The notes under the pieces were generated by a model that was not told the origin of the DNA, made no database searches, and saw only the letters and a program-made list of their open reading frames with translations. Shown one piece after another: positions 12,767-63,390 of a stretch of 64,000 nucleotides of DNA. This DNA is from an uncultured delta proteobacterium. GTDB taxonomy: Bacteria; Desulfobacterota; Binatia; Binatales; Binataceae. The DNA is taken from contig CAVQEQ010000004.1 of NCBI GenBank assembly GCA_963711565.1, forward strand, positions 1,344,001 through 1,408,000, given 5' to 3'. Made by a program: the position numbers and the translations under genes. The stretch's first letter is position 1. Each line of letters begins with the position of its first letter.

Positions 12767-13873
12767 ATGAATGTCGGCATCCCCACGGAAATCAAATCCG
12801 ACGAGCAGCGCGTGTCGCTGACCCCGGCGGGCGTCGCCGCACTGCGCACGCACGGTCATCGCGTGATGGTCCAGGCGGGAGCGGGAGTCGGCAGCGGATT
12901 CGCCGACACTGACTATCGCAAGGCAGGTGCATCAATCGTCACGGGGGCGGCGGACGTGTGGCGCCGCGCCGACATGATCCTCAAGGTCAAGGAACCACAG
13001 CCGCCGGAATACCCCCTGATGCGTCCGGGGTTGATCGTTTTTACCTATCTGCATCTCGCCGCGGACTCGCGTCTCTCACGCGAACTGATCCGCCGGCGCG
13101 TGACCGCGGTCGGCTACGAAACGATCCAGCTCGAAGACTCGAGTCTGCCGTTGCTCGCGCCGATGAGCGAAGTCGCGGGACGCCTCGCAATCCAGGCCGG
13201 CTGATGGTGTCTGCAGGCGCGCAGTGGCGGCCGCGGCGTCCTGCTGAGCGGAGCGTCCGGCGTGCGGCCGGGCAAGGTCGTGGTGCTCGGCGGAGGAATC
13301 TCGGGACTGAACGCATGTCGAGTCGCGGCGGGCGTCGGCGCTGAAGTGACGATCATGGATATCAATCCGACGCGGTTGCGCTACCTGGGCGATCTGCTCG
13401 GCGGGCGCGTGACGACGGTGATGTCGAATCGCGCGACGCTGGACGAGGAAGTTACGAACTGCGACCTCGTGATTGGCGCGGTGCTGGTGCCGGGCGCACG
13501 CGCGCCGCGGCTGCTGAGCGCAAAGATGGTTGCGCGGATGCGTCGAGGCGCGGCGATTGTGGATCTGTCGATTGATCAAGGTGGAATCGCGGAGACTTCG
13601 GCGCCCACGACGCATGCGCGTCCGACTTTCATCCGCAACGGCGTCGTGCACTACTGCGTGACGAACATGCCTGCGATGGTGCCGCACACCTCGACCTACG
13701 CGCTCACCAACGCGACGCTGACCTATGCGCTCGAAATCGCGGACCACGGGATTCTCGACGCCGGGATGAACAACTCCGCCATTCGCCACGGCCTGAATAC
13801 CTTTGACGGCCACGTCGTGCATCCCGCCGTCGCGCAGGCGCTCAAGATGAAACCGAACTCACCTTGGCAATAG
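12767..13873 (+). CDS. ald: Alanine dehydrogenase, interrupted by an in-frame TGA at 13202-13204 (probable sequence error or nonsense allele)
   Basis: GIPTEIK, VKEP, YLHLA, LLAPMSEVAGR, then TGA, then the same frame continues WCLQARSGGRGVLL...DQGG...NMPAMVP. Confidence 0.92.
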
Positions 13874-13927
13874 CGAGTCGGCTCAATCGCTCTGAGTGGT
13901 TCTGCAGAGCTGCTCCGATTTCCGATA

Positions 13928-14053
13928 CCTCTCCCCCCGGGAGAGGACGGCGCGCGCTTCGCGCGCCGTGTGAGGGCGCATGCATTCAGCTCGATGCGCG
14001 CGCCCTCACCCGACGCTCGCGGACTCGCATCGACCTCTCCCGAGGGGAGAGGT
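13928..14053. repeat. REP-like doublet (CCTCTCCC..GGGAGAGG / GTGAGGG..CCCTCACC family)
   Basis: Two CCTCTCCC-GGGAGAGG hairpins flanking GTGAGGGCGC...GCGCCCTCAC arms, between convergent genes. Confidence 0.7.
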
Positions 14054-14094
14054 AAGAGCCGGGATTCTTCGCTTCGCTCTGAATGACACAAAAA

Positions 14095-14153
14095 ACACTG
14101 GGTGCAGGGGTCACCCCTGCCCAAGGAAGCGTGAAACCCACCGCGGGTTTCAC
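14095..14153. repeat. 59 bp double-hairpin repeat, copy 1 (copy 2 at 62171-62229)
   Basis: ACACTGGGTGCAGGGGTCACCCCTGCCCAAGGAAGCGTGAAACCCACCGCGGGTTTCAC. Confidence 0.85.
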
Positions 14154-14180
14154 ATTCAATAAAATGATTTCTCTTTCTTC

Positions 14181-15230
14181 TTAAACCTGATCCTTATCGA
14201 GACTTGAGGTCCACTTGCGCGACGTGCGCCCTTCCCACGCGCGCTTGTGATAGGCGTATCCCACGATCAGCGGCACTGCGATCGTCGCCTCGCAATACAC
14301 CATCTGCTCGTAAGTCGTATCCACCTTGCCCCAACTGCTCGCCTCTTTGAGCGTGCTGCCCGACAGCGCGCCGTCGCGCACGTCGGCCACCGTGATCTGA
14401 ATTGCGTACTTGTGCATCGGCACGTCATGCCCCAGCACTTCGGCTGCGACCACGATGTCCTGCGCGAAATTCTTCGGTACGCCGCCGCCGATCATGAAGA
14501 GCCCCGTGCTTTCATTCTTCACCTTGAGCCGCGTCAGCTCGTAAAAATCCTTGGCACTGTCGAGCGAGACTTTGGGCTTGCCGTGACGGGCCGCCTGATG
14601 CGCCACCAGCCCGAAGCCGGCAGAGCAATCGCTGAACGCGGGACAGAAGATCGGCACCTCTTCGCGAAACGCCTCGAGCACGATGCTCGCGTCCGTCTTC
14701 GCACCGGTCTCTGCGAGATACTTGCCCATCTCGCCGACGAACTCGCGCGACGAATACGGCCGCGGTTCGAGGCTGTCGGTGATTTTATGAATCGTTTCGT
14801 CGCACACGCGCAGTTCATCTTCGTCGATCAGCGTGTCGTAGATTCGATCGATATGCAGTTCGCGCAGCTTGTCGTCGTCGAGCCCGTACTTGAAACGATC
14901 CTCGGCCATCCAATGCTTGAAGCCGAGCGCCTCGAAGAAATCCTGATCGACGATATTCGCGCCGGTGCTGACGATCGCATCGACCATGTGATTGCGAATC
15001 ATGTCGGCGAAGACGCGCTTCAGCCCCGCGCTGATCAGCGATCCAGCCAGGCACAGGATCACCCCGCACTCGCGATCGCGCAGCATGCGGTCGTAAATCG
15101 TCGCCGCGCGATGCAGGTCGCGGGCGCTGTACGCCATCTGCCCCATCGCCTCGACGATCGGCACGACACTGTCGCGCGTAATATCGACGTGCTCGATCGG
15201 TTTCTTCAGAAATTCTGATTTGACGCTCAT
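14181..15230 (-). CDS. Deoxyhypusine synthase-like protein (polyamine/homospermidine synthesis)
   Basis: STGANIVDQD, IGGGVPKNFAQD, DGALSGSTLKEASSWGK. Confidence 0.92.
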   Translation of the reverse strand: MSVKSEFLKKPIEHVDITRDSVVPIVEAMGQMAYSARDLHRAATIYDRMLRDRECGVILCLAGSLISAGLKRVFADMIRNHMVDAIVSTGANIVDQDFFEALGFKHWMAEDRFKYGLDDDKLRELHIDRIYDTLIDEDELRVCDETIHKITDSLEPRPYSSREFVGEMGKYLAETGAKTDASIVLEAFREEVPIFCPAFSDCSAGFGLVAHQAARHGKPKVSLDSAKDFYELTRLKVKNESTGLFMIGGGVPKNFAQDIVVAAEVLGHDVPMHKYAIQITVADVRDGALSGSTLKEASSWGKVDTTYEQMVYCEATIAVPLIVGYAYHKRAWEGRTSRKWTSSLDKDQV

Positions 15231-15299
15231 TACAGTCCTCGCGATGTATTCGATTTATTCGCCGATACTAAACATCGGCCAGGTTATACGCTACTTCGG

Positions 15300-16118
15300 T
15301 TATTTGATGGGGCCGATTCCGCCCACGCCGGTCCAGTAGAACATGAAATACAGGGTGCCGAGCCCGACCAAAAACGCAAACGCGATCACGTCCGCCGCCG
15401 TCACCGGGTATTCGATAAACGTCGTCGGCTCGTGGCTGAAGCCGAAGCCGCGCGCTTCCAGAGCCATCGCCATGTTGTTGGCCTTGCGCAGCGCGCCCAT
15501 AAAAACCGGGATCACCACCGGCACGTAACGCCGCACGCGCTCGAGCGGCCCGCCCTGGTTGAAGTCATAGCCGCGCAACCGCTGCGCATCGACAATCGTC
15601 ACGGCCGAATCGATAAACAGCGGGACCAATCGGAATGAGAGCGAGATCGCGAAGCTGACGCGATACGGCACCCGCATCCGCTGCAGTCCGTAAGTGAACT
15701 CCTCTATCTTGGTGGTCGAAAGAAACAGCACCGACGCCGCCAGCAACTCCGCCAGCTTGATCCCGCGCCCGATACCGAACTTGATCGAAAGCCACGTCAC
15801 ATCTATCGCCACATGACGCGATCCCCAGTGAAACAACTCCACTTTGAACAGTGGCGTTCCGCGCTGGTAAAAGACCATCCACATCAGCGTGGTCGTGAAA
15901 ATCAAAATTACGAATAGCCAGCGCAGCCGATAAAAATTCGGCCACGAATCGGTAAGCTGCGCGACCCAAAGCATCAGCACCCCGATCGGAACCAGCAGCA
16001 CGATCGGATTGTCCACCCAGTACACCGACCAGAACATGACGAACAGCGAGAACACCTTGACCGTCGGATGCAGCCGATGAACGAAGGTGCCTCTGTCGAT
16101 GTACAGATAAATCGGCAT
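15300..16118 (-). CDS. ECF transporter transmembrane T component
   Basis: LHPTVK, AQRLRG, MALEARG motifs; ATGA overlap with the ATPase gene. Confidence 0.9.
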   Translation of the reverse strand: MPIYLYIDRGTFVHRLHPTVKVFSLFVMFWSVYWVDNPIVLLVPIGVLMLWVAQLTDSWPNFYRLRWLFVILIFTTTLMWMVFYQRGTPLFKVELFHWGSRHVAIDVTWLSIKFGIGRGIKLAELLAASVLFLSTTKIEEFTYGLQRMRVPYRVSFAISLSFRLVPLFIDSAVTIVDAQRLRGYDFNQGGPLERVRRYVPVVIPVFMGALRKANNMAMALEARGFGFSHEPTTFIEYPVTAADVIAFAFLVGLGTLYFMFYWTGVGGIGPIK

Positions 16119-17830
16119 CAGGCGCGCCCCTTCACCCAGGCGACGAATTCGTCCGTCGTCAGCGCAAGCATGCCGAAACGGCGGCTCAGCTCCGTGATTT
16201 CCGGCGCCCGAAACGACGACGACCGCAGCAGCTCGTCCTGCATGAAGAACTCGCGCACGCCGCCGTCGAATATCTTCGCGCCCTTGCGCATCAACACGAC
16301 CCGCCGCGCATACTCCGCGACCAGCCACGGCGTATGGGTGATGATCACAATCGCGATCCCCGCGCGGTTGAGGTCGCGCACCAGTTCCATCATGCGAAGT
16401 TGCTCGCGATGGTCCAGCCCCGTAGTCGGCTCGTCGAGTATCAGCATCCGCGGTCGCAGCACGAGGACACTCGCTACCGCCAGCCGTTGCCGCTCGCCCT
16501 TGCTGAGCAGGAACGGGTCGCTCTGCCGCTCGTTCTGGAGGCCGACCGCTTCGAGCGCTTCGTCGCATCTCCGCCGGATCTCGTCCTCGGCCAGGCCGAA
16601 GTTGCGCGGCCCGAACGCGACTTCCTCCTCAACCGTGGCGGCGAAAATCTGATGGTCCGGATTCTGAAAAACGTACGCGACCACGCGCGCCGTCTCCGCC
16701 GGACGCATCTCCGCGCGATCCTTGCCGTCGATCGTCACGCGACCCGCCACCGGCTGCAGCAGCCCCACGATATGCTTGGCCAGCGTGGTTTTACCGGAAC
16801 CATTTTGCCCGACGATCGCAAGAAATTCGCCCGCTTCGACTTTGAGCTCGATCGAATCCAGCACGCGCGGTCCACCCGCGTAGCTGAAGCTGACGTTCTC
16901 GATTCCGATAAACGCGGGAGCGACCGGCATCGAGGACTCGGGCCGAGCATTTACGTTGCCGATTTGATTCGTCGCGAGCCGCGGATATGCGCGCTCGATC
17001 GCGTCGTAAGCCTGCTCGACGCTTTTCGGTTGCGCGTCGATTCCGAGCAGCCCGAGCGCGTGACCGAGTCCCGGCGGACGCACGCCGCATGCAGTCAGCA
17101 GCTCGGTGCGTGCGAACACTTCGGCCGGCGGACCGTCCGCCGCGATTTCGCCCTCGCGCAGAACGACTATCCGATCGGCGGCGCGCAGCTCCTCCGACTC
17201 GTGCTCGATCACGATCAGGCTCAAGCCCTGCGCGCGCAGCTTCGCGATCAAGTCGAAGACTTCCGCCCTGCCCTCGGGATCGAGGTCGGTGGTCGGCTCG
17301 TCGAGCACGATCACCGACGGGCGCAGCGCCAGCACCGACGCGATCGCGAGCCGCTGCTTCTCGCCGCCCGACAGCGACATCGGATCGCGATGCTCGAAGC
17401 CGCGCAGCCCGACGGCTTCCAGAGCGGGCAGGATTCGCCGGTCCATCTCGGCGCGGTCCATCCCAACCTGTTCCATCGCGAAGGCCACTTCGTGCGCGAC
17501 GTTGGTCGAGAACAGCTGCGACTCGAAATCCTGGAAGACCATGCCGACCTTCGGCGCAACGTCGCAGACGCGAAGAACTTCCAGCGACTCGCCCGCGATT
17601 CGTATCACGCCGTGAAAATCCCCGTCCTCGAACTCCGGCACGATCCGATTCAAACATTTCGCGAGCGTCGATTTGCCCGCGCCCGACGCGCCCATCACGC
17701 CGATCGCCTCGCCCGCCGCCTGGGTGAAGCTGACCCCGCGAAGCGCCGGCCGCTCCGCACCGTGATAGGTGAACGTGACGCCCTGCGCCGACACTGAGTG
17801 CTGGTTAGTATTCACTGATAAAGTTTTCAC
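16118..17830 (-). CDS. ECF transporter fused double ATPase (A-A')
   Basis: Two Walker A (GASGAGKS, GQNGSGKT), LSGGEKQ/LSKGERQ signatures, two LDEPTT; GTG start overlaps the upstream TGA. Confidence 0.92.
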   Translation of the reverse strand: MKTLSVNTNQHSVSAQGVTFTYHGAERPALRGVSFTQAAGEAIGVMGASGAGKSTLAKCLNRIVPEFEDGDFHGVIRIAGESLEVLRVCDVAPKVGMVFQDFESQLFSTNVAHEVAFAMEQVGMDRAEMDRRILPALEAVGLRGFEHRDPMSLSGGEKQRLAIASVLALRPSVIVLDEPTTDLDPEGRAEVFDLIAKLRAQGLSLIVIEHESEELRAADRIVVLREGEIAADGPPAEVFARTELLTACGVRPPGLGHALGLLGIDAQPKSVEQAYDAIERAYPRLATNQIGNVNARPESSMPVAPAFIGIENVSFSYAGGPRVLDSIELKVEAGEFLAIVGQNGSGKTTLAKHIVGLLQPVAGRVTIDGKDRAEMRPAETARVVAYVFQNPDHQIFAATVEEEVAFGPRNFGLAEDEIRRRCDEALEAVGLQNERQSDPFLLSKGERQRLAVASVLVLRPRMLILDEPTTGLDHREQLRMMELVRDLNRAGIAIVIITHTPWLVAEYARRVVLMRKGAKIFDGGVREFFMQDELLRSSSFRAPEITELSRRFGMLALTTDEFVAWVKGRA

Positions 17831-18612
17831 ATCATGAACAGGCCCGCGAACGCCAGCAGCAGGAACGGGCCAACTATAATCAGGACCGGCTTGTCGTACG
17901 GCGCGACGATCATCCACGCGGGCAGAAACTTCGGCGCCCAGTATCCGGTCGATAGCAAATTTCCCAAAACCCACGCGCCGCCCTCGCCCGCTATCAGCAG
18001 CGCGAAACCGGTGGCGCGAAGCGGTACCGGCTTCAGCTTCACCTCCGGCATCACGTCAGTGTAAAGCATCCGGCCTTTCTTCACCCGCGGATAGACGGCG
18101 GCGAGGATGAACGGCGAAAGCGCCAGCGCCGAGATCATATTGTTGAAGATGATCACGTTGCCGAGCATCGCGAACGGCCGGATCACGAGCACGTTGTCGG
18201 CCCATCCGACCAGGTCGGCGCACAGCACGCTCGCCGCGAGGCACGCGATTACGTACTTGAAAATTATAATAGGTGAATTGGGCACGGGGCTCTCGCCGCG
18301 CGCGATCAATTCCCAGACCTTGTAGGGAATCCATCCGTACGCCAGGTTCGCGAAGAATCCGAAGATGTCGCCCGGCGACACGCCGCCGAAAAAATCGCCG
18401 ATCATATTTCCGATCGCCGAGCCCCACGCTGCCGCCGGACCGAACAGGAACGAGCACACGACCGGAATCGCGTTGGCGGGACGCAGTTCGGTGACGCCGG
18501 GAATCAGCGGCACCACCTTGAACGGCACCAGCACTGCCGCGTACAGCGCCGCCGAGATCGCGCACAGCACGACCATCCGCGTGTTGCGCCACATCAGGCG
18601 GAGATCGCTCAT
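17827..18612 (-). CDS. ECF transporter S component, QueT-like
   Basis: AALYAAVL...ELRPAN...LFGPAAAWGSAIGN; multiple TM helices; first gene of an S-A-T operon. Confidence 0.8.
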   Translation of the reverse strand: MSDLRLMWRNTRMVVLCAISAALYAAVLVPFKVVPLIPGVTELRPANAIPVVCSFLFGPAAAWGSAIGNMIGDFFGGVSPGDIFGFFANLAYGWIPYKVWELIARGESPVPNSPIIIFKYVIACLAASVLCADLVGWADNVLVIRPFAMLGNVIIFNNMISALALSPFILAAVYPRVKKGRMLYTDVMPEVKLKPVPLRATGFALLIAGEGGAWVLGNLLSTGYWAPKFLPAWMIVAPYDKPVLIIVGPFLLLAFAGLFMM

Positions 18613-18665
18613 CGCGGCACCGGCCACGCGATGCGCGCACGGCGCATGCCTGCTATACGGATTGA

Positions 18666-19442: not shown

Positions 19443-19475
19443 AATACGCACGCGCAGTCGCTACAATAAATCGAG

Positions 19476-19832
19476 ATGCCAATATACGAATATCGATGCG
19501 AGAAGTGCCGGCGGACTACCAGCGTTCTGACCACCCGCATCAGCGAAAAGGTCGAGGCGGTTTGCGCGCATTGCGGCGGCAAGAAAATGAGCCGGCTGAT
19601 GTCGCGCTTCGCGATGCCGCGCAGCGAGGAATCGCGGATGGAATCGCTCGCGGATCCGTCGAAGATGGGCGACATCGACGAGAACGACCCGAAGAGCGTC
19701 GCGCGGATGATGAAGCGGATGGGCAAGGAAATGGGCGACGAGTTTGGCGGCGCCGAATTCGATGAGGCGGTCGAGGAGATCGAGAGCGGCGGCGATTTGG
19801 GGGACGACGGATCGGATGAGGGGGATATTTAG
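19476..19832 (+). CDS. FmdB-family zinc-ribbon protein
   Basis: MPIYEYRCEKC...CAHCG; acidic C-terminus. Confidence 0.88.
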   Translation: MPIYEYRCEKCRRTTSVLTTRISEKVEAVCAHCGGKKMSRLMSRFAMPRSEESRMESLADPSKMGDIDENDPKSVARMMKRMGKEMGDEFGGAEFDEAVEEIESGGDLGDDGSDEGDI

Positions 19833-20759: not shown

Positions 20760-20784
20760 CGCCCTGATCCGCTTGGAGCATCAC

Positions 20785-41268: not shown

Positions 41269-41281
41269 TGGCGGGAAGGCG

Positions 41282-42134
41282 TTATGGCGCGATGCGGTCG
41301 GGGCGCGTGTAGATGTTGAAGCTGCCGTCGCGCAAGAAGCCGATGAGCGTCGTGCCGATTTCTTCGGCCAGCTCGACCGCCAGCGATGAAGGCGCCGAGA
41401 CGGCCGCGAGAATCGGGACGCCTGCAGCGGCGGCCTTCTGCACGATCTCGAAACTGAGCCTGGCCACTGACCATCATTATATGTCGCGCCAGCGGGACCA
41501 TCGCATTTGTCAACGCATAACCGATCACCTTGTCCACCGCGTTGTGACGCCCGACGTCCTCGCGTATCGCGAGCATCGTGCCGTCGAGGCTGAAGATCGC
41601 GGCGCCGTGGAGGCCTCCGGTCGCGGCGAACACGCGCTGGCCCGCGTGGAGTTTCTCCGACAGCGCGAGCAGCGTGGGCGGCGTGACGAGCGCGGAATCC
41701 GCGGGCGGCGCGACGCGGCGTCGAATCGAGTCGATGCTGGTCTTGCCGCAGACGCCGCAACTCGAGCTCATCACGAAGTTGCGCTTGAGGCGGGCGCGCA
41801 GTCCGTCGGCTGGAACATTCAGGATAATGTCGATCGCGTTTGGCTCCGGCGCGCCCTTGCGTCCACGCACTCGGCGAATCTCGTCGAGCTCGCTCGCATC
41901 GTTGATGAAACCCTCGGCGAAGAGAAAGCCCGCCGCCAGTTCCTCGTCATGCCCCGGCGTGCGCATCGTGAGGGTGAAGCGGCGGCCTGCGAGTCGAATC
42001 TCGAGCGGCTCTTCGACGGCGAGTTTCTCCGCGCGTTCCGCAGTCGTGCCATGATGCCATTTGAGTGCCCGATGCTCTCGAACTTCATCGGCCGGTTCCT
42101 CATGCACGGAAATGTGCGCGGAGTCGGTTTTCAT
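41282..42134 (-). CDS. fdhD: Formate dehydrogenase accessory sulfurtransferase FdhD/FdsC, with a one-base insertion near 41461
   Basis: [31 protein letters not shown]; the C-terminus [10 protein letters not shown]...SAPSS is in another frame. Confidence 0.92.
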
Positions 42135-45100
42135 CCCTCGCCAACTTCTTCCGATTCAACGACCGACTCGGTCGCAATGAAGGCAACGGCTTCACGTACG
42201 AGCGGGCTCAGCTCATCGCCGCCCTTCGCCACGTAGTCAACGATCTCGCGGCGCATCCGCGCCTCCCAGAAATTGCGGAGATGGTTCGCGACGCCTTCGG
42301 CGGCTTCCTCTTGATCCGGAAGACCGACGAAGTACGCACCGATATCGTTCGCCATCCTGACGAGATGATGAATATCCACTGCGTGAACGTCGCCATTAGC
42401 TAGTCGATGTTCGGCATCTCTGTCCTTTCGTCCGTTGCCACCGCGTTCCGGCGAGACCTGGACGGCGGTGACCTTGAACTCGGGACAGTTGGTAGCCCAA
42501 TCAGAATGATCGGTCATCAGATCATTGGTGCGCGATTCCGGATGATGAAATGTGGTGTACACGACGCCGGGCTGGACGCGTTCAGTGACCAGCGCACGCA
42601 AGCGAGTCTCCCCTCGGCGCGCCCGCACCTGGAGCCAATCTCCGTCGCGGATGCCGCGCAGCTCGGCGTCGCTCGAATGGATCTCGAGGCGATCCTCCGC
42701 GTGCATCGAGGCATTCAGAGTGCGCCGCGTCTGAGTACCAACATTATACTGACTGAGTATTCGGCCAGTAGTCAGTATCAGCGGATACTCTGAGTTCGTG
42801 CGTTCCTCAGTGGGTATATACTCGGTAATCGTGAACTTGCCTTTGCCGCGGACGAAGTGATCTTCATGCATGGTAGGAGTGCCCGCCGGTGCGGCGTCGT
42901 TGCACGGCCATTGCACGGAGCCGAGGCGCTCGATCTTCTCGTAGCTGACGCCGGAGAAAGTCGGAGTCAGCCGCGCGATTTCGTCCATGATTTCCGACGG
43001 ATGCGAATACTTCATCGGATAGCCGAGCGCGGTCGCGAGCTCGCAGGTGATCTCCCAATCTTCCTTGCCGGCCAGCGGCGCGGCGACCTTGCGCACCATC
43101 GAGATTCGCCGCTCGCTGTTGGTGAAAGTGCCGTTCTTTTCGAGGAACGACGAGCCCGGCAGAAAGACGTGCGCGTATTTCGCGGTCTCGTTGAAAAACA
43201 GATCCTGCACCACGACGCATTCCATTGCGCGCAAGGCCGCCGCGACGTGATGGCCGTTCGGTTCCGATTGCGCGACGTCTTCGCCCTGCACGTAGAGGCC
43301 CTTGAAGCTACCGTCCACTGCCGCGTCGAACATGTTGGGAATCCGCAGGCCCGGCTCGGGATCGATGCGTACGCCCCACGCCGCGTCGAAGCTCGCTCGC
43401 ACATCTTTGTCGGAGATGTGGCGGTAGCCGCTGAACTCATGCGGGAACGAGCCCATGTCGCATGAGCCTTGCACGTTGTTCTGGCCGCGCAGAGGATTCA
43501 CGCCGACTCCGGGACGCCCGATATTGCCGGTCGCCATCGCGAGGTTGGCGATACCCAGCACCATCGTGCTGCCCTGGCTGTGCTCGGTGACGCCGAGGCC
43601 GTAGTAGATCGCGCCGTTGGGCGCGTTCGCATACATGCGCGCGGCCGCACGGACCTTGTCGGCGGGCACGCCGGTGATTCTCTCCATCGCTTCCGGCGAG
43701 TTGCGCGGATCGGCGACGAATTTCTTCCACGCCTCGAATTCATGCGGATCGCATCGCGCCGCCGCGAAGGCTTCGTCGGTGAGTCCCTCCGTCACGACCA
43801 CATGAGCGATCGCGTTGATGAGCGCGACGTTGGTGCCGGGACGGAGTTGCAGATGATACGACGCCTGCACGTGGGGCAGCCGCACAATTTCGGTGACGCG
43901 AGGATCGACGACGATCAGCCGGGCGCCCTCGCGGATTCGGCGCTTCATCTGCGCCGCGAACACCGGATGCCCTTCCGTGACGTTGGCGCCGATCACCATG
44001 ATTACGTCGGCTTGCATCACCGACTCGAAATCCTGCGTCGTCGCCGAAGTGCCGAACGCTGTCTTGAGTCCGTAACCGGTCGGCGAATGACACACGCGCG
44101 CGCAGGTGTTGACGTTGTTGTTGCCGAACGCGGCGCGCACCAGTTTCTGCACGAGAAAAGTTTCCTCGTTGGTGCATCGCGAGGACGTAATCCCGCCGAC
44201 CGCCCCGCGCCCATACTCGTCCTGGATGCGCTTGAACTCCGACGCCGCATAATCGATCGCCTCGTGCCACGAAACCTCGCGCCACGGCTGGTCGATCGAT
44301 TTGCGAATCAACGGACGCGTGACGCGATCCGGATGCGTCGTGTAGCCCCACGCGAAGCGGCCCTTGACGCACGAGTGCCCGTGATTGGCCTGCCCGTTGG
44401 GGTTGGGCACCATCCGCGCGACGAGGTCGCCTTTCATTTCGGCCCTGAATGAGCAGCCGACGCCGCAATATCCGCAGGTCGTGACGACGCTGTGATCCGG
44501 CTGGCCGAGTTCGACTACGGATTTTTCCATCAAGGTCGCGGTGGGACATGCCTGCACGCAGGCGCCGCACGAAACACATTCGGACGCCGAGAACGGGCCG
44601 TTCTGCCCCGGCGAAACCAACGACGAGAATCCACGCCCGTCGATCGTCAGCGCGAACGTGCCCTGCACTTCTTCGCACGCACGGACGCATCGCGAGCACA
44701 CGATGCATTTCGACGGATCGAAGGTGAAATACGGATTCGACTGGTCCTTCTCTGCGTGCAGATGATTCGCGCCGTCGCCGCTGCGGTAGCGCACCTCGCG
44801 CAGGCCGACCGCACCCGCCATGTCCTGCAGCTCGCAGTTGCCGTTGGCGGGACAGGTCAGGCAGTCGAGCGGATGATCCGAAATATACAGCTCCATCACG
44901 CCGCGCCGCAGCCGCGCGAGCGCGGGGCTCTCGGTGCGGACTTTCATACCAGCACGCACGGGAGTCGTGCATGAGGCCGGATAGCCGCGCTGGCCTTCGA
45001 CTTCGACCAGGCACAGGCGGCAGGAGCCGAACGGCTCGAGCGAATCCGTCGCGCACAATTTCGGAACGTGGATTCCGGCTTCGGCGGCCGCGCGAATCAG

Positions 45101-45208
45101 CAACGTCCCTTCAGGAACCGCGACGCCGCGTCCATCGATCTCCAGCGCGACCGTTCGCGCGCCAGGTCGAAGTGGTGTGGCGAAATCGCTATCGCTACGC
45201 GATCGCAT
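42131..45208 (-). CDS. fdsA: NAD-dependent formate dehydrogenase alpha subunit with a C-terminally fused delta (FdsD-like) domain
   Basis: 2Fe-2S and 4Fe-4S motifs, CGYCGVGC, CARVCH (Cys ligand), RGQNNVQG; last ~80 aa DIHHLVRMANDIG...NHLRNFWEARMR match FdsD. Confidence 0.93.
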   Translation of the reverse strand: MRSRSDSDFATPLRPGARTVALEIDGRGVAVPEGTLLIRAAAEAGIHVPKLCATDSLEPFGSCRLCLVEVEGQRGYPASCTTPVRAGMKVRTESPALARLRRGVMELYISDHPLDCLTCPANGNCELQDMAGAVGLREVRYRSGDGANHLHAEKDQSNPYFTFDPSKCIVCSRCVRACEEVQGTFALTIDGRGFSSLVSPGQNGPFSASECVSCGACVQACPTATLMEKSVVELGQPDHSVVTTCGYCGVGCSFRAEMKGDLVARMVPNPNGQANHGHSCVKGRFAWGYTTHPDRVTRPLIRKSIDQPWREVSWHEAIDYAASEFKRIQDEYGRGAVGGITSSRCTNEETFLVQKLVRAAFGNNNVNTCARVCHSPTGYGLKTAFGTSATTQDFESVMQADVIMVIGANVTEGHPVFAAQMKRRIREGARLIVVDPRVTEIVRLPHVQASYHLQLRPGTNVALINAIAHVVVTEGLTDEAFAAARCDPHEFEAWKKFVADPRNSPEAMERITGVPADKVRAAARMYANAPNGAIYYGLGVTEHSQGSTMVLGIANLAMATGNIGRPGVGVNPLRGQNNVQGSCDMGSFPHEFSGYRHISDKDVRASFDAAWGVRIDPEPGLRIPNMFDAAVDGSFKGLYVQGEDVAQSEPNGHHVAAALRAMECVVVQDLFFNETAKYAHVFLPGSSFLEKNGTFTNSERRISMVRKVAAPLAGKEDWEITCELATALGYPMKYSHPSEIMDEIARLTPTFSGVSYEKIERLGSVQWPCNDAAPAGTPTMHEDHFVRGKGKFTITEYIPTEERTNSEYPLILTTGRILSQYNVGTQTRRTLNASMHAEDRLEIHSSDAELRGIRDGDWLQVRARRGETRLRALVTERVQPGVVYTTFHHPESRTNDLMTDHSDWATNCPEFKVTAVQVSPERGGNGRKDRDAEHRLANGDVHAVDIHHLVRMANDIGAYFVGLPDQEEAAEGVANHLRNFWEARMRREIVDYVAKGGDELSPLVREAVAFIATESVVESEEVGEG

Positions 45209-50521: not shown

Positions 50522-50530
50522 GAGGATCAC

Positions 50531-51704: not shown

Positions 51705-52298
51705 TCAGCCGCGGAACTCGCGCGCCACGATGTACAGCTCCGACGATCCTGGACGGCTGGCTTTGGTGCGCGTTACCTCGACGCTTCCGAAGTGGCGCTT
51801 GAATGAATCGACGATGTCCTTGAACTGCGCGCCCATGAAGAGCTTGGCGACCATCGCGCCGCCCGGTTTCAGCATCGTCGTCGCGAAAGCCAGCGCGCAG
51901 TCTATCAGCTCGCGCGAACGTGCCTCGTCGCGCGCCGCAATCCCGGTCAGCTTCGGCGCAAGGTCGCTGGTCACCAGGTCGGCACGTCCGCCAAGCTCGC
52001 TATCCACGCGCGCGGCGACATTGGGATCGAGAATGTCACCGGCGATCGTGATCGCGCCGACGGGCGGATTTTTCACCTGCGCGAGATCGACTCCCACGAC
52101 GCGTCCACTGGCGCCCGCCGCCGCGACCAGGATCACCAGCCATCCGCCGGGCGCGCATCCGAGATCGACGACTCGCGCGCCTTTGCCGACGAGCCGGTTG
52201 CGGGCGATTATTTCCTCGATCTTGAATGCCGCGCGCGACGGCAATCCCATCGCGCGCGCCTTACGGTAAAATTTGTCGTGTGGTTCGTACGTCGCCAC
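51705..52298 (-). CDS. rlmE: 23S rRNA (uridine-2'-O)-methyltransferase
   Basis: SRAAFK, DLGCAPGGW, SDLAP, ASR..SSELY. Confidence 0.95.
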   Translation of the reverse strand: MATYEPHDKFYRKARAMGLPSRAAFKIEEIIARNRLVGKGARVVDLGCAPGGWLVILVAAAGASGRVVGVDLAQVKNPPVGAITIAGDILDPNVAARVDSELGGRADLVTSDLAPKLTGIAARDEARSRELIDCALAFATTMLKPGGAMVAKLFMGAQFKDIVDSFKRHFGSVEVTRTKASRPGSSELYIVAREFRG

Positions 52299-52384: not shown

Positions 52385-54564
52385 GTGAATCTCGACGACT
52401 TGAATCCTGAACAGCGCGCCGCTGTGCTCGCGCCCGACGGCCCGATACTCATCCTGGCCGGTGCGGGCTCGGGCAAGACCCGCGTGCTGACCTACCGTAT
52501 CGCCCACATTCTGGCCGAGCGCAAGGCTGCGCCCTTCGAGATGCTCGCGGTGACGTTCACCAACAAGGCCGCCAATGAGATGCGCGAGCGGGTCGCGGCT
52601 CTGGTCGGCGACGAGTCGCGGCTGCCGTGGGTCAGCACGTTCCATTCGGCGTGCGCGCGGATTTTGCGCCAGGAAGGTCACGCGCTCGGCTACGACCGCA
52701 ATTTCTCGATTCTCGACGAAGGCGACTCGCTGACGACGATCCGCCGCGTACTCGACGACGCCGCGCTGGCCGACTCGCCCCCGCTCGAACTTGCGCGCGC
52801 GCGAATCGAGCAGGCCAAGAACGAAGCGATCTCGCCCGACGACATGCTGGCGAGCGCTCAACCAGGGCGCGAGGCCTCGATCGCGCAGATTTACCGGCTC
52901 TACCAGAACCGGATGCGCGAGATGAACGCGATGGACTTCAGCGATTTGCAATTGCAGACCTGGATTCTGTTCGAGCGCTTCCCCGAAATCCTCGAGAAGT
53001 GGCAGCGGCGCGCGGCGCATCTGCTGGTCGATGAGTATCAGGACACCAACCGCGTCCAATATTTGATCGTCAAGGCGCTCGCTGCGCGGTCGGGAAATCT
53101 ATGCGTGGTCGGCGACGAGGATCAATCGATTTACCGCTGGCGCGGCGCCGACATCCGCAACATCCTCGATTTCGAGCGCGACTACCCCGCCGCGCAAATC
53201 TTCAAGCTCGAGCAGAACTACCGCTCGACCAAAACCATCCTGGCCGCGGCCGGCGGCGTCATCCGCAACAACACCGAGCGCAAGATCAAAAACCTGTGGA
53301 CCGAAAATGGCGCCGGCGAGCCGGTCACCTACTACACCGGCGTGACCGAGCGCGACGAGGCCGATTTTATCGCGCTCGAAATCGCGCGACAGACCGGCTC
53401 CGGCGGATTCCGGGCCGCCGACATAGTCGTCTTCTACCGCGTCAATGCCCAGTCGCGCGCGATCGAAGAGGCGCTCGTGCGCCGGCGAATCCCCTACTAC
53501 ATCGTTGGCGGCGTGCGCTTTTACGAACAGCGCGACGTTAAGGATCTGCTCGCCTACCTGCGCGTGCTCGCGAATCCCGCCGACGCCGTCAGCCTCGAGC
53601 GGATGGTCGGCACACCGCCGCGCGGAATTGGCGCGAAGTCCTTCGAGGCGATCACTGAATTGGCAGCGCGCGAGCAGATCACGGCGTTCGAGGCGATGGG
53701 CCGGCTGAGACTTACTCGAAGGTTGCACTCAGAATCGCCAAGCAGGCCGGGATGCTCTATTCGTGGATGCACGATCTTGCCGTGCGCATGCCCGAGTTGA
53801 GCGTGCGCGGAATCGTCGAGGAGGTCGTGGCCCACAGCGGCTTCGAGCCGTATCTCGACACGCTCGACGACTCCGCGATGCGCAAACAGAATCTCGCCGA
53901 GATGCTCACCGCGGCCAGCGCCTTCGACGCCGAGAAATCCGGCGGCGGTCTGGCCGAGTTCCTCGAACGAGTCGCGCTGGTCAGCGACACCGAGCAGATC
54001 GATTCGAGCGGAGGACGCGCCGCGCTGATGACGCTCCACACCTCAAAGGGCCTCGAGTATCCGATCGTCTTCATCGCCGGGATGGAGGAAGGACTGTTTC
54101 CGCATAGCCGCTCCGCCGATATCGACGAGGAAGTCGAGGAGGAGCGCCGTCTGTGCTACGTCGGCATGACGCGCGCGCGCCAGTTGCTCTACCTGACCAA
54201 CACGCTCTCGCGCGAAATTTACGGCGTGCGCCAGGAATCCCGTCAGTCGCGATTCATGCGCGAGATCGACCCCGCCCTGATTCACCGTATCGCGCCGCAA
54301 CGCCACACCGCTCCGATACGCCCGCTCTCGCCGCGCGAATCTTACGTCAACCTGAGCGACAGCCAGTTGCCCGACGACGAGCCGGGTCCCGGTGGCGACG
54401 GTCTTTCAGTTGGCGCGCGCGTCGTTCATCCGACCTTCGGCCGCGGTATCGTCCGTAGGCGCGAGGGACGCGGCGACGGCGCCAAGGCGTGGGTGAATTT
54501 CGAGCGCGGCGGGATCAAGCTGCTTGTGCTCAAGTTCGCAAACCTGAGGTTGATTGCAGACTGA
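52385..54564 (+). CDS. pcrA: UvrD/PcrA DNA helicase with an apparent one-base deletion near 53706
   Basis: AGAGSGKT, VDEYQD, GDEDQSIY, QNYRS in ORF 52385..53800; TLHTSKGLEY, EERRLCYVGMTRA and the C-terminal Tudor-like domain in ORF 53752..54564. Confidence 0.93.
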
Positions 54565-55802: not shown

Positions 55803-56786
55803 GTGGGATTGGCGGTGCTGGAACTGTGCGCGGGCGGCGGCGGACAGGCACTTGGGCTTGAGGCTGCGGGCTTCGAGTCCGCGGCCGTAGTGGAGATCGA
55901 CACGCATTCTTGCAATACGCTTCGGTTCAACCGTCCCAAGTGGCACGTCATTCAATCAGACATCCGCGAGATAAGCGGCCGCAATTTCCGCGGAATTGGT
56001 CTCTTCGCGGCTGGCGTGCCTTGCCCGCCGTTCTCGATTGCTGGAAAGCAGCTCGGGCGGCACGATGAACGCGATCTCTTTCCAGAGGCGCTTCGAATCA
56101 TAGAGGAATCTAGGCCGCCGGCAGTTTTGTTGGAGAACGTTCCCGGCTTAGCGTCGAACAAATTCAAGACGTATCGCCACGGTATCGCCGCGGCCCTTTC
56201 GGAACTGGGCTACGAGGTCCGCTGGGCTACGCTAAGTGCTTCGGATTTCAACGTTCCCCAGTTACGCCCACGCTTCATCGTCGTAGCTTTGCGCGCCAGG
56301 CTGTCCGGTCGTTTTGCTTGGCCCGAGCGACTGACGCGCCGGCCTCCGACAGTCGGCGAAGCCATCGGAGATCTGATGGCCGCAGGCGGTTGGACCGGCG
56401 CTGAAGCATGGGCGCGCAAAGCGAGCGGGATTGCGCCGACAATCGTCGGCGGTTCGAAGAAGCACGGAGGTCCCGACCTGGGTCCGACTCGTGCGCGCCG
56501 CCAGTGGGCGAGTCTTGGCGTTGATGGTCTCGGCATAGCGGACGAACCGCCTGATCGAGGGTTTCCGTCTTCAGCAAAGCCCAGACTCACCATCCCGATG
56601 GTCGCTCGGCTCCAAGGCTTCCCCGACGACTGGAAATTCACCGGAAAAAAGACCGCCGCATACCGCCAGGTTGGAAACGCCTTCCCACCTCCGGTAGCCG
56701 CACAAGTGGGTTGCGCGCTTCTCGAAGCTCTAAACGCCACACGGACTCACCTCGTGCGGCGTTCACAGCCCAGTCTATTCGCGTAA
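55803..56786 (+). CDS. DNA (cytosine-5) methyltransferase, M.NaeI/M.NgoMIV-like
   Basis: ELCAGGGG, PCPPFS, ENV, Q.RPR, QVGNA; target-recognition region APTIVGGSKKHGGPDLGPTRA. Confidence 0.93.
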   Translation: MGLAVLELCAGGGGQALGLEAAGFESAAVVEIDTHSCNTLRFNRPKWHVIQSDIREISGRNFRGIGLFAAGVPCPPFSIAGKQLGRHDERDLFPEALRIIEESRPPAVLLENVPGLASNKFKTYRHGIAAALSELGYEVRWATLSASDFNVPQLRPRFIVVALRARLSGRFAWPERLTRRPPTVGEAIGDLMAAGGWTGAEAWARKASGIAPTIVGGSKKHGGPDLGPTRARRQWASLGVDGLGIADEPPDRGFPSSAKPRLTIPMVARLQGFPDDWKFTGKKTAAYRQVGNAFPPPVAAQVGCALLEALNATRTHLVRRSQPSLFA

Positions 56787-57371
56787 ATGCCGCATCGCCC
56801 AAAAGGGATGAGCGCACGAGAGTCCATCCGGCTCTTCTTGCTCAAGAACCTGAATCGCACAATACAGGGTTCCGAGTTGCGTGAAGCGGCCGGTGGAATT
56901 TCGGAATGGGCACGACGGGTTCGCGAGCTTCGGGACGAACAGGGTTACGATATTCTAACGCACAAGGATCGCGCGGATCTTAAACTTGGCCAGTACATGC
57001 TGCTAACCGCGAGACGCCGCCCCATTTTGGATCGGACGATCTCAAAGGAAATAAGAGCGCGCGTGCTGGAACGCAACGGCTTCACTTGCCAAGCGTGCGG
57101 CGCTGCTGCGGGCGATCCCGATCCCTTCCACCCAGATCGCACGATTCGGCTTACCATCGGGCACATCGTCAACTTCTCCAAAGGTGGCAAATCGGAGTTC
57201 GGAAACCTCCGTGCGGAATGCACCAATTGCAACGAAGGCTTGCAAAACACTTCTCTGCCGAAACCATCGCGGATCGAGCTCTTCAAACAGATTCGGCGCG
57301 CTACGCTGGATGACCAGCGAGTGGTCCTGGAATGGCTCGAACGGAAATTCGGGGGCCGCAGCAAAAGTTAG
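56787..57371 (+). CDS. HNH endonuclease, KpnI-like putative type II restriction enzyme
   Basis: FLLKNL...EWARRVRELRDEQGYDIL N-terminus, CQAC...GH...CTNCN HNH/zinc motif; starts immediately after the MTase stop. Confidence 0.8.
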   Translation: MPHRPKGMSARESIRLFLLKNLNRTIQGSELREAAGGISEWARRVRELRDEQGYDILTHKDRADLKLGQYMLLTARRRPILDRTISKEIRARVLERNGFTCQACGAAAGDPDPFHPDRTIRLTIGHIVNFSKGGKSEFGNLRAECTNCNEGLQNTSLPKPSRIELFKQIRRATLDDQRVVLEWLERKFGGRSKS

Positions 57372-57374
57372 CGT

Positions 57375-57800
57375 TTGAAGCTCGTGCCGGACGTATTCAC
57401 TCCAGAAAAACGTTCCAAAGTGATGGCGCGAATTCGCGCCAAAAACACAAAACCCGAGCTTGCCGTTCGCCGGGCGCTTCACCGTCTCGGCTATCGCTTC
57501 CGATTGCACGATCCGAGACTGCCGGGGCGTCCGGATATCGTGCTCGCCAGACACCGGCTAATTATCGAGGTGAACGGCTGTTTCTGGCATGGCCACCGCT
57601 GCCTCAAAGGCCGCATACCTGTCGGCAATCGCGCCTATTGGGTGCAGAAAATCGGCGGTAACAAGATTCGGGAAAGGCGAAATGCCCACCGTCTGCGTGC
57701 CATGGGATGGAAGGTCAAGACTGTCTGGGAGTGCGAAGTGCGGCGTCAAAACACGGATCAGCTTGCCGCCGGCTTGCGGAAGCTCTTCGCCGAAATCTAA
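57375..57800 (+). CDS. vsr: Very short patch repair endonuclease
   Basis: RSKVMARIRAKNTKPE, LPGRPD, GCFWHGH, VWECE. Confidence 0.93.
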   Translation: MKLVPDVFTPEKRSKVMARIRAKNTKPELAVRRALHRLGYRFRLHDPRLPGRPDIVLARHRLIIEVNGCFWHGHRCLKGRIPVGNRAYWVQKIGGNKIRERRNAHRLRAMGWKVKTVWECEVRRQNTDQLAAGLRKLFAEI

Positions 57801-57822
57801 TCCGCATATCGAAGGTCGATTG

Positions 57823-59487: not shown

Positions 59488-59582
59488 CGACTCCTGCCTT
59501 GCTCCGCTTTTAACCTATCCCTTATACTCCGAAATTAACTCGACACATGGGGATTGCGCCGATTTCAACCGAATCACACACG

Positions 59583-60764
59583 ATGCGACAAGTAGCATTT
59601 CACCGTCCGTCCATCGGACCCGACGAGGAGCGCGAGGTGCTCGACACCCTGCGCTCCGGATGGATCACCACCGGCCCCAAGGCCAAGCGCTTCGAGAGCG
59701 AATTCGCCGGCTACGTCGGCGCCAAACACGCGCTCGCGCTTGCGCATTGCACCGGCGCGCTCCATCTCTCGCTGTGGGCGCTCGGCATCGGCCCCGGCGA
59801 CGAGGTCATCACCACGCCGTTTACCTTCACGGCGACCGCCGAGATTCTCGGCTACCTCGGCGCGCGTCCGGTGTTCGTCAACGTCGATCCCGGAACATTC
59901 AACATCAACCCGGCGCGCATCGAAGAGGCACTCGAGAGCGGCGCGCACAAACGCGTCCGCGCGATCCTGCCGGTGCACTTCGCCGGCCACGCTTGCGACA
60001 TGGATCGCATCCTCAACATCGCGCGCAACTACAATCTGAAGGTTGTCGAGGACGCCGCGCACGCCGCCGGCTCCGCGCGCCACATGGACGGCCGCGGGAT
60101 GGCGAAAATCGGCACCATCGGCGACCTCACCTGCTTCAGTTTCTACGCCACCAAGAATTTCACCACCGCCGAGGGCGGCATGATCACAACGTCCGACGAC
60201 GCGCTCGCGGAAAAAATCGCCGTCGCCAGCCTGCACGGGATGAACAAGGACGCGTGGAAGCGCTACGATAAGAGCGGCTCGTGGTACTACGAAATCCACG
60301 ACATGGGTTTCAAGTACAACCTCTCCGACGTGCACGCCGCCATCGGCCTGGCTCAGCTCAAACGCGCCGACGACTTCATGCGCCGGCGCGGTGAAATCGC
60401 GAGCGCCTACAACGAGGCTTTCCGCGGCGACGACAGTCTCCAGCCGGCGTACTCCGAACCCGGCATCGAGCACGCCTGGCATCTCTACGTCCTGCGCATC
60501 CGCCCCGAGCGCCTCAAGCTCGGCCGCAATCAGTTCGTCGAAATTCTGCGCGAGCGCGGCGTCGGATGCTCCGTGCACTGCATCCCGCTGCACACGATGC
60601 ACTACTACCAGCGCATGTACGGCTACCGCGACGGCGATTTTCCGGTCGCCGAAGAAATCTTCAGCCGGTGCCTGTCGCTGCCGATCTACGCCGCGATGAC
60701 CGACGACAACGTCGCTTACGTGATCGAAACCGTTCGCGCCATCGCGCGCGAGAATGGCCGCTGA
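59583..60764 (+). CDS. DegT/DnrJ/EryC1/StrS aminotransferase
   Basis: SGWITTGP, EDAAHA, SFYATKN..TAEGG. Confidence 0.93.
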   Translation: MRQVAFHRPSIGPDEEREVLDTLRSGWITTGPKAKRFESEFAGYVGAKHALALAHCTGALHLSLWALGIGPGDEVITTPFTFTATAEILGYLGARPVFVNVDPGTFNINPARIEEALESGAHKRVRAILPVHFAGHACDMDRILNIARNYNLKVVEDAAHAAGSARHMDGRGMAKIGTIGDLTCFSFYATKNFTTAEGGMITTSDDALAEKIAVASLHGMNKDAWKRYDKSGSWYYEIHDMGFKYNLSDVHAAIGLAQLKRADDFMRRRGEIASAYNEAFRGDDSLQPAYSEPGIEHAWHLYVLRIRPERLKLGRNQFVEILRERGVGCSVHCIPLHTMHYYQRMYGYRDGDFPVAEEIFSRCLSLPIYAAMTDDNVAYVIETVRAIARENGR

Positions 60765-60779
60765 CCCCGGAGAACAACT

Positions 60780-61724
60780 GTGCGCACATTGGTAACCGGC
60801 GGCGCGGGATTCCTCGGCTCTCATCTATGCGAGCGCCTGCTCAACGACGGCCACGAAGTCATCTGCCTCGACAACTTTTTCAGCGGCAAGCGCGCCAACA
60901 TCATGCACCTGCTCGGCAACCGCAATTTCGAATTCATCCGCCACAACGTCGTCGAGCCAATCCTGCTGGAAGTCGATCGCATCTTCAGCCTCGCCTGCCC
61001 CGCGTCACCGGTGCATTACCAGTACAACCCGGTGAAGACCATCAAGACCTCCGTGATGGGCACCATCAACATGCTTGGGCTGGCCAAGCGCGTGCACGCG
61101 CGCATTCTGCTGACTTCGACCAGCGAGGTTTACGGTGATCCCGAGCAGCATCCGCAAACCGAATCGTACTGGGGCAACGTCAATCCGATCGGCGTGCGTT
61201 CCTGCTACGACGAGGGCAAGCGCGTCGCCGAATGCCTGATGATGGACTATCATCGGCAGAACAACGTCGATACTCGCATCGTGCGCATCTTCAATACTTA
61301 CGGCCCGCGGATGGCGATCAACGACGGCCGCGTGGTCTCGAACTTTTGCGTCTCTGCGTTGCGCGGCGAGGATCTCGAAATTTACGGCGACGGCAAATCG
61401 ACGCGCTCGTTCGCCTACGTCAACGACATTATCGACGCACTCGTGCGCATGATGAATCAGGACACGCACATCGGCCCTGTGAACATCGGCAACCCCGACG
61501 AATTTACGATCGAGGAACTCGCCAGCCTCGCCATCGAGCTGTCAGGCAGCTCGTCGAAGGTCGTTTACAAACCGCCGCGGGCCGACGATCCTGTGCGTCG
61601 CAAACCCAATATCGAGCTCGCGAAAAAGATTCTCGGCGGATGGCAGCCGCAGACGGCTCTTCTGCCTGGGCTCACAAAATCAATCGCGCACTTCCGCGAA
61701 GTCCTGGGCATCCCGCGAAAATAA
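60780..61724 (+). CDS. UDP-glucuronate decarboxylase family NAD-dependent epimerase
   Basis: [34 protein letters not shown]. Confidence 0.93.
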
Positions 61725-61816
61725 CGTCGGTCGTTGGCTTCGCTTGCCATTGCGTCCATCCGGCGAGAAGATATGAAGGTATCAGAAGTCCGCCGTTTCC
61801 CATTCGACAGCGCATC

Positions 61817-62170
61817 ATGAGTCGAAATGATTTCTCTTGCTCTTTTTCCCTAATCCGGTCCCCCTTCCCGCGCGGGAAGGGGTTAGGAGTTGGGTTCTTC
61901 GCCGTACCACCGCTGCTCGCCTTGGCCCTCGCGTCATGCGCCGCAGCGCCGCCGCCTCCGGCTCGTGCACCCCAGCCAATCGTCTATATGCCGCCCGATC
62001 CTAATCCGCCGCCGCCCGACGAATGGAACCTGCTCCCCGACCCGACCACCGGCCAGGTCGATGTCTATCACGAAGGCGGTTACGTCGGCTCCGTCACCGG
62101 CAACGAGCCCGCGGACCAGGACCCGCCAATCCCGCATCCGGTCGCGACCCCTGCGCCTGACGCGGATTAG
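61817..62170 (+). CDS. Small proline-rich putative lipoprotein
   Basis: LLALALASC lipobox, Pro-rich linker, compact domain WNLLPDPTTGQVDVYHEGGYVG; start codon uncertain. Confidence 0.55.
   Translation: MSRNDFSCSFSLIRSPFPRGKGLGVGFFAVPPLLALALASCAAAPPPPARAPQPIVYMPPDPNPPPPDEWNLLPDPTTGQVDVYHEGGYVGSVTGNEPADQDPPIPHPVATPAPDAD
61852..61887. repeat. REP-like hairpin CCCCTTCCC..GGGAAGGGGTTAG, copy 1
   Basis: Related copy at 63853-63896 and a partial arm at 20041-20065. Confidence 0.7.
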
Positions 62171-62229
62171 ACACTGGGTGCAGGGGTCACCCCTGCCGAA
62201 GGAAGTATGAAACCCACCGTGGGTTTCAT
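62171..62229. repeat. 59 bp double-hairpin repeat, copy 2
   Basis: ACACTGGGTGCAGGGGTCACCCCTGCCGAAGGAAGTATGAAACCCACCGTGGGTTTCAT; five differences from 14095-14153. Confidence 0.85.
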
Positions 62230-62247
62230 TTTAATCGTTCCTGGCTT

Positions 62248-63390
62248 TCACTTTTTGAGTAGATTCCGCGCGATCACGACGCGCTGGATCTGCGACGTGC
62301 CCTCGTAAATCTGCAACAGCTTCGCATCGCGCATCAGCTTCTCGACGGGATACTCCTTCATGTACCCATACCCGCCGAAAATCTGTACCGCGTTGGTCGT
62401 GATCTCCATCGTCGCGTCGGCGCTGAAGGCCTTCGCGTATGCCGAAATCGTGTTGGCGCCTTCGCCCTTGTCGACCAGCCACGCCGCCTTGTACGTCAGC
62501 AGCCGCATCGCTTCGATTTGGATCGCCATGTCGGCCATCATGAACTGGATCGCCTGGAAGTTCGCGATCGGCTGCCCAAACGCGTTGCGCTGCTTGGAGT
62601 ACTTGAGGCATTCGTCGAGTGCGCGCTGCGCAATCCCAATCGCGATCGCGCCAATCTCCGGCAGGCTATGATCGAACGTCGCCATCGCGTACTTGAAGCC
62701 TTCGCCCTCGCGTCCGACCAGCGCGCTCGCGGGAACGCGCACGTCCTCGTAAAAGATCTCGCCGGTGTCCGCCGCGCGCTGCCCGAGCTTTCCATGCATC
62801 CGGTTGCGCGTGATTCCCGGCACGCTCGACGGAAACACGAAGCACGAGATGCCCTTGTGCTTGAGCCGCCTGTCCGACGTCGCGAAGGTGACGTACCAGT
62901 CCGCGCGCGAGCCGTTCGAGATAAAATGCTTGGTGCCGTTGATTACGAACTCGTCGCCCTCGCGCCGATACGTCGTGCTCATCGCGGCAACGTCCGAGCC
63001 CGCGCTCGGCTCGGTGATCGCGAATGCGCAGAACGTCAGTTTCTTTACCAACTGCCCCAGGTAGGTGCGCTTCTGCTCGTCGTTGCCTGCGATCAGAATC
63101 GGCAATGTCGCGAGGTCGTTGGCGCCGACCGCGTTCGAGATTCCCGCGCATCCGTAGTTCAGCTCCTCGACAATCAGGCTCGTGTCGAGCACGCCGAGTC
63201 CCGGTCCGCCCAGTTCCTTCGGCACCCCGAAGTTCATCAGCCCCGCCGCGAACGCCTTCTCGCACACGTCGACCGGAAAAATCTCCTTTTCATCGTACTC
63301 ACGAGCGCGCGGAATTATTTCCTGCTCAGCAAACTTGTGCGCCAGCTCTTTCAGCTCGCGCTGCTCATCGGTCAAATCAAAACCAAGCAT
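62248..63390 (-). CDS. Acyl-CoA dehydrogenase
   Basis: AITEPSAGSD, NGTKHFISN, KLGQRA, FGGYGY, IYEGTSQIQ. Confidence 0.95.
   Translation of the reverse strand: MLGFDLTDEQRELKELAHKFAEQEIIPRAREYDEKEIFPVDVCEKAFAAGLMNFGVPKELGGPGLGVLDTSLIVEELNYGCAGISNAVGANDLATLPILIAGNDEQKRTYLGQLVKKLTFCAFAITEPSAGSDVAAMSTTYRREGDEFVINGTKHFISNGSRADWYVTFATSDRRLKHKGISCFVFPSSVPGITRNRMHGKLGQRAADTGEIFYEDVRVPASALVGREGEGFKYAMATFDHSLPEIGAIAIGIAQRALDECLKYSKQRNAFGQPIANFQAIQFMMADMAIQIEAMRLLTYKAAWLVDKGEGANTISAYAKAFSADATMEITTNAVQIFGGYGYMKEYPVEKLMRDAKLLQIYEGTSQIQRVVIARNLLKK

Follow-up and report, generated by a model that had tools for sequence, protein, structure and literature searches.

Four lesions in conserved genes of an uncultured delta proteobacterium lie at the hexamer GCCGGC and, together with about half of the lesions breaking open reading frames (ORFs) that we surveyed across its genome, are very probably consensus errors linked to this motif, likely arising from 5-methylcytosine (5mC) at GCCGGC. 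The stretch under study, hereafter the window, comprises 64,000 nucleotides (G000:C4:1344001-1408000) of assembly G000, which amounts to 4.84 Mb in four contigs of 0.3-1.6 Mb, sizes that point to long reads, presumably from nanopore sequencing. The window also encodes a C5 cytosine DNA methyltransferase with GCCGGC as its predicted target. A preliminary description had reported that the lesions, in ald, fdhD, pcrA and an acyl-CoA dehydrogenase gene, all map to GCCGGC, either exact or one base off; all four are indeed present in the sequence and were placed by congener DNA of 82-95% identity as follows.

13196..13204, plus strand: in ald (gene 12767-13873), a TGA in frame directly behind GCCGGC (13196-13201); placed by congener comparison.
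41458..41464, minus strand: in fdhD (gene about 41287-42134), GCC-GGC split centrally by one extra base (T41461 on the plus strand); placed by congeners and runs X1 and X5.
53700..53707, plus strand: in pcrA/uvrD (gene about 52385-54564), one base missing behind 53706, after GCCGGC; placed by congeners and runs X1 and X2.
62661..62666, minus strand: in an acyl-CoA dehydrogenase gene (62248-63390), GCAGGC for GCCGGC, which puts Leu243 where Arg is conserved; placed by congeners and the protein cluster.

The evidence was drawn from the assembly, congener genomes, public metagenome contigs (runs X1, X2, X3, X5 and X6) and protein clusters, while the unpublished genome G018 was used in genome tallies alone. 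Soil metagenomes were the best public holders of window DNA, and cluster mates of the window proteins carry the name Candidatus Binatus. Since GCCGGC occurs 94 times in the window (6,827 times in the genome), four sites are weak evidence by themselves and a genome-wide test has to carry the claim. When the window was scanned ab initio for changes of frame, the same three ORF breaks were recovered and the other switches read as gene junctions, which gave no sign of cherry-picking.

For the genome-wide test, lesions were defined as in-frame stops or as indels whose length is not a multiple of three, and were assigned either to G000 or to the control congener G007 by a coding model trained on G000. 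The comparison covered 2.8 of the 4.58 Mb of G007, with 2,005,063 bases aligned. Four parameter sets were pooled, gap clusters of more than two columns were dropped (three such rows in one list), and 30,000 simulated lesions, scored identically, served as the null. The method mainly sees indels, and the four discovery sites lie outside the lesion set. Among the 52 lesions of G000 (50 frameshifts and 2 stops), 28 were located within 4 bases of GCCGGC compared with 1.41 expected (binomial p 3e-30), which made this the top-ranked hexamer. In contrast, none of the 46 lesions of G007 (42 frameshifts and 4 stops) was found at GCCGGC, where 1.39 were expected (G000 versus G007, Fisher p 2.5e-10). The genome-wide enrichment that the preliminary description had proposed as a check was thus found. 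No methyltransferase corresponding to that of the window was detected in G007, a genome that is 97% complete.

Closer examination of the 28 motif-linked lesions revealed 22 one-base deletions, 4 two-base deletions and 2 insertions. Both insertions read GCC-A-GGC, which is the fdhD lesion type in reverse complement. C-to-T changes were absent from these 28 lesions as well as from the four in the window, and GCCGGC was retained within 4 bases in 19 of the 28. A wider motif (CCGG, RCCGGY, GGCGCC or CGGCCG) was considered and rejected: the remaining 24 lesions showed no excess (CCGG 3 versus 1.94, other RCCGGY 1 versus 0.65, the 5-mer GCCGG 2 versus 1.44), and the enrichment is therefore specific to the GCCGGC hexamer. 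With about 2,127 intact coding copies of the motif open to the survey, roughly 1.3% were hit (roughly 1 in 80; the two filters differ slightly). By extrapolation, some 80-90 genes may be broken at GCCGGC among the 6,827 sites. The genes hit include glnE, kdpA, thiI, recD2, one groEL and many metabolic enzymes.

At the ald site, GCCGGC is kept in all five congener loci, and the position of the TGA directly behind it is occupied in each by a sense codon for Ser or Ala (TCA in two, TCC, GCG and GCA). The base deviating from the C of the congeners is 13203, two places past the motif. In a second assembly (P0139, on a contig of 897,037 bases), the ald frame is lost right after AIQAG, at the same base as the window lesion, and the translation corresponds to the shifted frame expected on deletion of the base that is read as G in the window. 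The ald of P0139 differs from that of the window at several residues. That the two assemblies are damaged at one base in unlike ways is easier to reconcile with a read error that recurs than with descent. A near-identical methyltransferase (P0161) is probably encoded on the same contig, as both contigs measure 897,037 bases. A 30-base ald pattern had no match in the metagenomes, and near-identical DNA for this site was not found. Selenocysteine incorporation or read-through at the TGA was rejected, because the congener residue varies between Ser and Ala and the other assembly is frameshifted there.

The frame change in pcrA, previously bracketed to 53659-53800, was narrowed to a single base missing behind 53706, two places past GCCGGC (53700-53705). 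The extra base is present in all nine congener loci and the motif in eight of them. In contigs of runs X1 and X2, which carry a C behind 53706 and also span the methyltransferase cassette, pcrA is in frame. Deletions directly past GCCGGCT recur elsewhere in the genome (C1:393712, C1:485685 and C3:1380155). Similarly, fdhD is shorter by one base in all five congener loci and in frame in contigs of X1 and X5, both of which lack T41461, while X3 and X6 have no coverage of this position. These public contigs belong to other strains, being about 99% alike around pcrA and about 95-96% at fdhD. For the acyl-CoA dehydrogenase, the proposed loss of a conserved Arg by a single-base departure from GCCGGC agrees with both comparisons: the hexamer is intact in 5/5 congener loci, and the position of Leu243 holds Arg in all 14 other cluster members among the 15 listed of 470. 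Public records trace each of the truncated products (ald, fdhD and pcrA) and the Leu variant to a single contig, of the size of C4, while the methyltransferase sequence is on record from 4 and 11 contigs.

The methyltransferase forms part of a three-gene cassette:

55803..56786, plus strand: C5 cytosine DNA methyltransferase, 327 amino acids, intact, with an NgoMIV-type target region and GCCGGC as predicted target.
56787..57371, plus strand: HNH endonuclease, 194 amino acids, likely the cognate restriction enzyme.
57375..57800, plus strand: Vsr very-short-patch repair endonuclease, 141 amino acids.

The methyltransferase has an open frame, matches PF00145 (218 bits) and TIGR00675 (above cut-off) and contains GVPCPPFS with the catalytic PC motif. 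The resemblance of its target region to NgoMIV-type enzymes, noted earlier from the letters, was borne out by comparison of residues 178-250, of which 44/73 are identical to the Neisseria enzyme upstream of R.NgoMIV (L117) and 51/73 to a plasmid homolog (L116), versus 10/73 for each of two further C5 enzymes, including the intact C2 paralog of this genome. Identity to the Neisseria NgoMIV partner is 175/327 overall. The plasmid homolog (57%) sits upstream of an annotated NgoMIV-family enzyme, and the Neisseria homolog (55%) upstream of a gene matching R.NgoMIV (PDB 1fiu) at E 1e-188. Methylation of GCCGGC by the window enzyme is thus a prediction from its sequence. PADLOC returned DruM2 and type II methyltransferases as best models. 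The cassette is absent from the corresponding locus in congeners. Of the 46 other genomes in the genus, a methyltransferase search at E 1e-20 matched two, at 60% (the short-contig congener G036) and at 34%.

No PD-(D/E)XK enzyme of the NgoMIV family was found beside the methyltransferase; the adjacent gene encodes an HNH nuclease, which places the system outside the NgoMIV family by its nuclease, and this gene had no Pfam match to the NaeI family either. Among 24 relatives of the HNH protein, the closest 14 (61-88%) are each directly preceded by a methyltransferase whose target region is of the same type (61-85%). In the other 10, which are more distant, the methyltransferase at this position is unlike or none is in view. 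The pairing in the closest relatives makes the HNH gene the likely cognate restriction enzyme of the window methyltransferase, as judged from gene order and homology. It is somewhat more probable than its contrary that this gene encodes a GCCGGC restriction enzyme of a fold without a literature link to GCCGGC; a narrow search of open-access literature, as far as its texts were accessible, found no HNH enzyme tied to this sequence. The methyltransferase-HNH pair was observed in 14 loci (L186-L199) labelled Binataceae or delta proteobacterium, Chloroflexota and Verrucomicrobiota, and is a candidate HNH-type GCCGGC restriction system. One related methyltransferase in a large-contig record (L187:1469-2455) has two frame changes, neither of them at GCCGGC. 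A second C5 methyltransferase of the genome (L034:1450-2639; G000:C1 about 1042800-1044000) occupies two frames, with the break close to seven consecutive C, which may reflect a homopolymer error or phase variation.

Substitutions carried little of the motif signal. Radical amino-acid losses at GCCGGC (81 versus 52) were no more skewed than at control palindromes (for example CGCGCG, 115 versus 75), and substitution rates in the flanks of GCCGGC were not raised. At about 85% identity, rare errors are swamped by real divergence. Of six tests, two stood out. C-to-T changes were in excess at the first C of the motif (odds ratio 2.0, p 0.003; 61 versus 27 inside, 1922 versus 1697 outside), and so were synonymous C-to-G changes at the second C (odds ratio 1.28, p 0.003). 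GCCGGC itself is hardly depleted in G000 (observed/expected 0.94) and so gives no sign that the system has resided there for long. Strong depletion relative to Markov expectation was observed in G000 for GTCGAC (0.24) and CAGCTG (0.42).

Two further classes of lesions appeared in the same survey. Duplication of A or T inside GACGTC accounted for 5/52 lesions in G000 (0.26 expected; including C1:229959, C1:1003557, C3:727298 and C3:1434382) and 9/46 in G007 (0.28 expected). GACGTC is depleted in G000 (0.56) and is possibly a motif methylated throughout the genus. A weaker class consists of one-base insertions at TCGA/CTCGAG in G000 (9/24 versus 3.56). In two other assemblies (P0161 and P0163), the window methyltransferase carries a frameshift at GGTTCGAAG (window about 56451-56459), in keeping with this class. 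Assignment of the pcrA lesion to it was rejected: the intact context holds CTCGAG too, but the CTCGAG class consists of insertions. In addition, 13 one-base insertions fall within about 32 kb of G007 (L113-L114, versus G000 C1:547000-579000), where coverage of the G007 assembly was likely poor.

We propose that the resident methyltransferase (55803-56786) is active and puts 5mC on GCCGGC, and that the modified base would distort the native-DNA nanopore signal across several neighbouring bases. A minority of motif sites (about 1 in 80) would then end up with a wrong consensus, mostly a deletion of 1-2 bases in or beside the motif, while the sequenced cells would carry intact genes. As a guess, a central A/T insertion may arise because it turns CCGG into CCWGG, the Dcm site present in basecaller training. 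The earlier suggestion that the genes are intact and the errors a footprint of a GCCGGC methylome is thereby supported by the enrichment and by the intact public alleles, with the sequencing platform, 5mC itself and the alleles of the sequenced cells as its presumed parts.

Several points, gathered here and with the alternatives that follow, weigh against this explanation. The intact alleles come from other strains, so that a mutation private to the sequenced strain is conceivable, and the comparison with near-identical DNA covers two of the four genes, pcrA and fdhD. The fdhD site agrees with the initial claim in part: the extra T41461 stands (5/5 congeners, X1 and X5 are without it), but GCCGGC is found in just one of five congeners and the intact alleles of X1 and X5 have A at 41459 and hence no GCCGGC, so that the case for the motif here depends on the sequence of the window itself. 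The signal among substitutions is weak only. The named genes of the 28 lesions include neither ribosomal proteins nor tRNA synthetases nor subunits of RNA polymerase, the broken groEL has an intact paralog (64%), and pcrA has paralogs of 34% and 30%; with such paralogs and with genes that are not clearly essential, essentiality cannot rule out real mutations.

The lesions might also be sequencing errors caused by the GCCGGC context itself or by the mark of another enzyme, which we consider improbable. The genome encodes two other C5 and several N6/N4 methyltransferases as possible sources of such a mark, the activity of the window enzyme is predicted, and the one control genome, G007, may differ in sequencing or polishing (40 of its 42 frameshifts are insertions). 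However, G007 contains more GCCGGC sites in the aligned part than G000 (3379 versus 2786) and yet has none of its 46 lesions there, while its GACGTC class indicates that it is open to motif-linked errors. Furthermore, the lesion motif is the very target predicted from the enzyme sequence, and the intact C2 paralog shares only the 10/73 residues of the target region mentioned above.

Even less probable, in our judgement, is that the lesions are real and mark an in vivo hotspot at which the HNH nuclease cuts under-methylated GCCGGC and Ku-dependent end joining leaves deletions of 1-2 bases. If true, this would describe a self-cutting restriction system that disables dozens of genes in a wild soil population. 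Short deletions make up 26 of the 28 motif-linked lesions, Ku is encoded in the genome, the genes hit are mostly not obviously essential, and the missing pcrA base is not among the insertions listed for run X6 (depth 8.57 at 53706), whose contigs may not bridge the site. One report describes self-cutting by resident restriction-modification systems at CCGG in N. gonorrhoeae; in the same report, 0/32 GCCGGC sites were cut (PMC13321361). A re-cuttable GCCGGC is left by 19 of the 28 lesions, pcrA is intact in near-identical contigs with the same cassette, each lesion allele is recorded from a single contig, and the second assembly has an unlike lesion at the same ald base, all of which argue against scars of cutting. 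In addition, the fixation of dozens of fresh null alleles in the consensus of a soil population would need very weak selection. A real deamination hotspot, with methylated C turning to T faster than Vsr repair, is hardly credible, since the C-to-T excess at the first C of the motif that speaks for it is contradicted by 0/28 frameshifts and 0/4 window lesions of this kind, and it would explain at most a small substitution excess that miscalls could also yield.

If, as favoured here, the lesions are motif-linked consensus errors, pseudogene and gene-loss calls on this record are unsafe, as 80-90 genes may be falsely broken and truncated products have entered public protein collections. An assembly's error pattern, compared with one congener, yielded a motif that matches the predicted target of a resident enzyme and thus offers a cheap way of pairing methyltransferases with motifs in uncultured bacteria. 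The cassette of HNH nuclease and NgoMIV-type methyltransferase is a testable candidate restriction system.

Elsewhere in the window, dense differences from near-identical public contigs were observed at 44981-45164, 51862-52125 and 41279-41616, with nearly identical sequence around them, a pattern suggestive of recombination among strains. In all four runs, contigs pile up to very high depth and with many loose ends on a short intergenic segment at about 62170-62230, which is thus a high-copy repeat.

Errors of this kind are already well described in print. Under default models, about 70% of the consensus errors fell at Dcm CCWGG motifs (PMC6591954), strain-specific methylases of Listeria led to motif-linked mismatches at GCAGC and GCTGG (PMC10687267), and errors lying up to 5 bases from methylated sites affected some copies of a motif only (PMC12392509). 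The principle of reading motifs from error patterns is likewise in print, with read errors having been used for motif discovery (PMC11610603, Hammerhead; 10.64898/2026.01.14.699587). A narrow search of open-access literature, with supplementary tables outside its scope, found no GCCGGC-linked assembly errors. The lesions described here resemble Oxford Nanopore modification errors in clustering inside a methylation motif or a few bases away from it, in affecting some copies only and in tracking the methyltransferase of the strain. They differ in the motif GCCGGC, in the host, an uncultured soil bacterium, in being mostly indels and in that the motif was read from an assembly and one congener.

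The closest known counterpart of the cassette is the NgoMIV/NgoAIV type II system of N. gonorrhoeae. M.NgoAIV places 5mC on GCCGGC (PMC6789123; PMC13321361), and its deamination substrate GTCGGC/GCCGGC (PMC6116569) suggests that the first C is methylated, the position at which G000 shows its C-to-T excess. NgoMIV is a PD-(D/E)XK enzyme that cuts GCCGGC (PMC4081073). The window system differs in its nuclease, with the 194-residue HNH protein followed by vsr in place of a PD-(D/E)XK NgoMIV-family enzyme, and its activity is a prediction. It shares with the gonococcal system the likeness of the C5 methyltransferase (175/327 overall and 44/73 in the target region) and a motif that is the same as that of the lesions.

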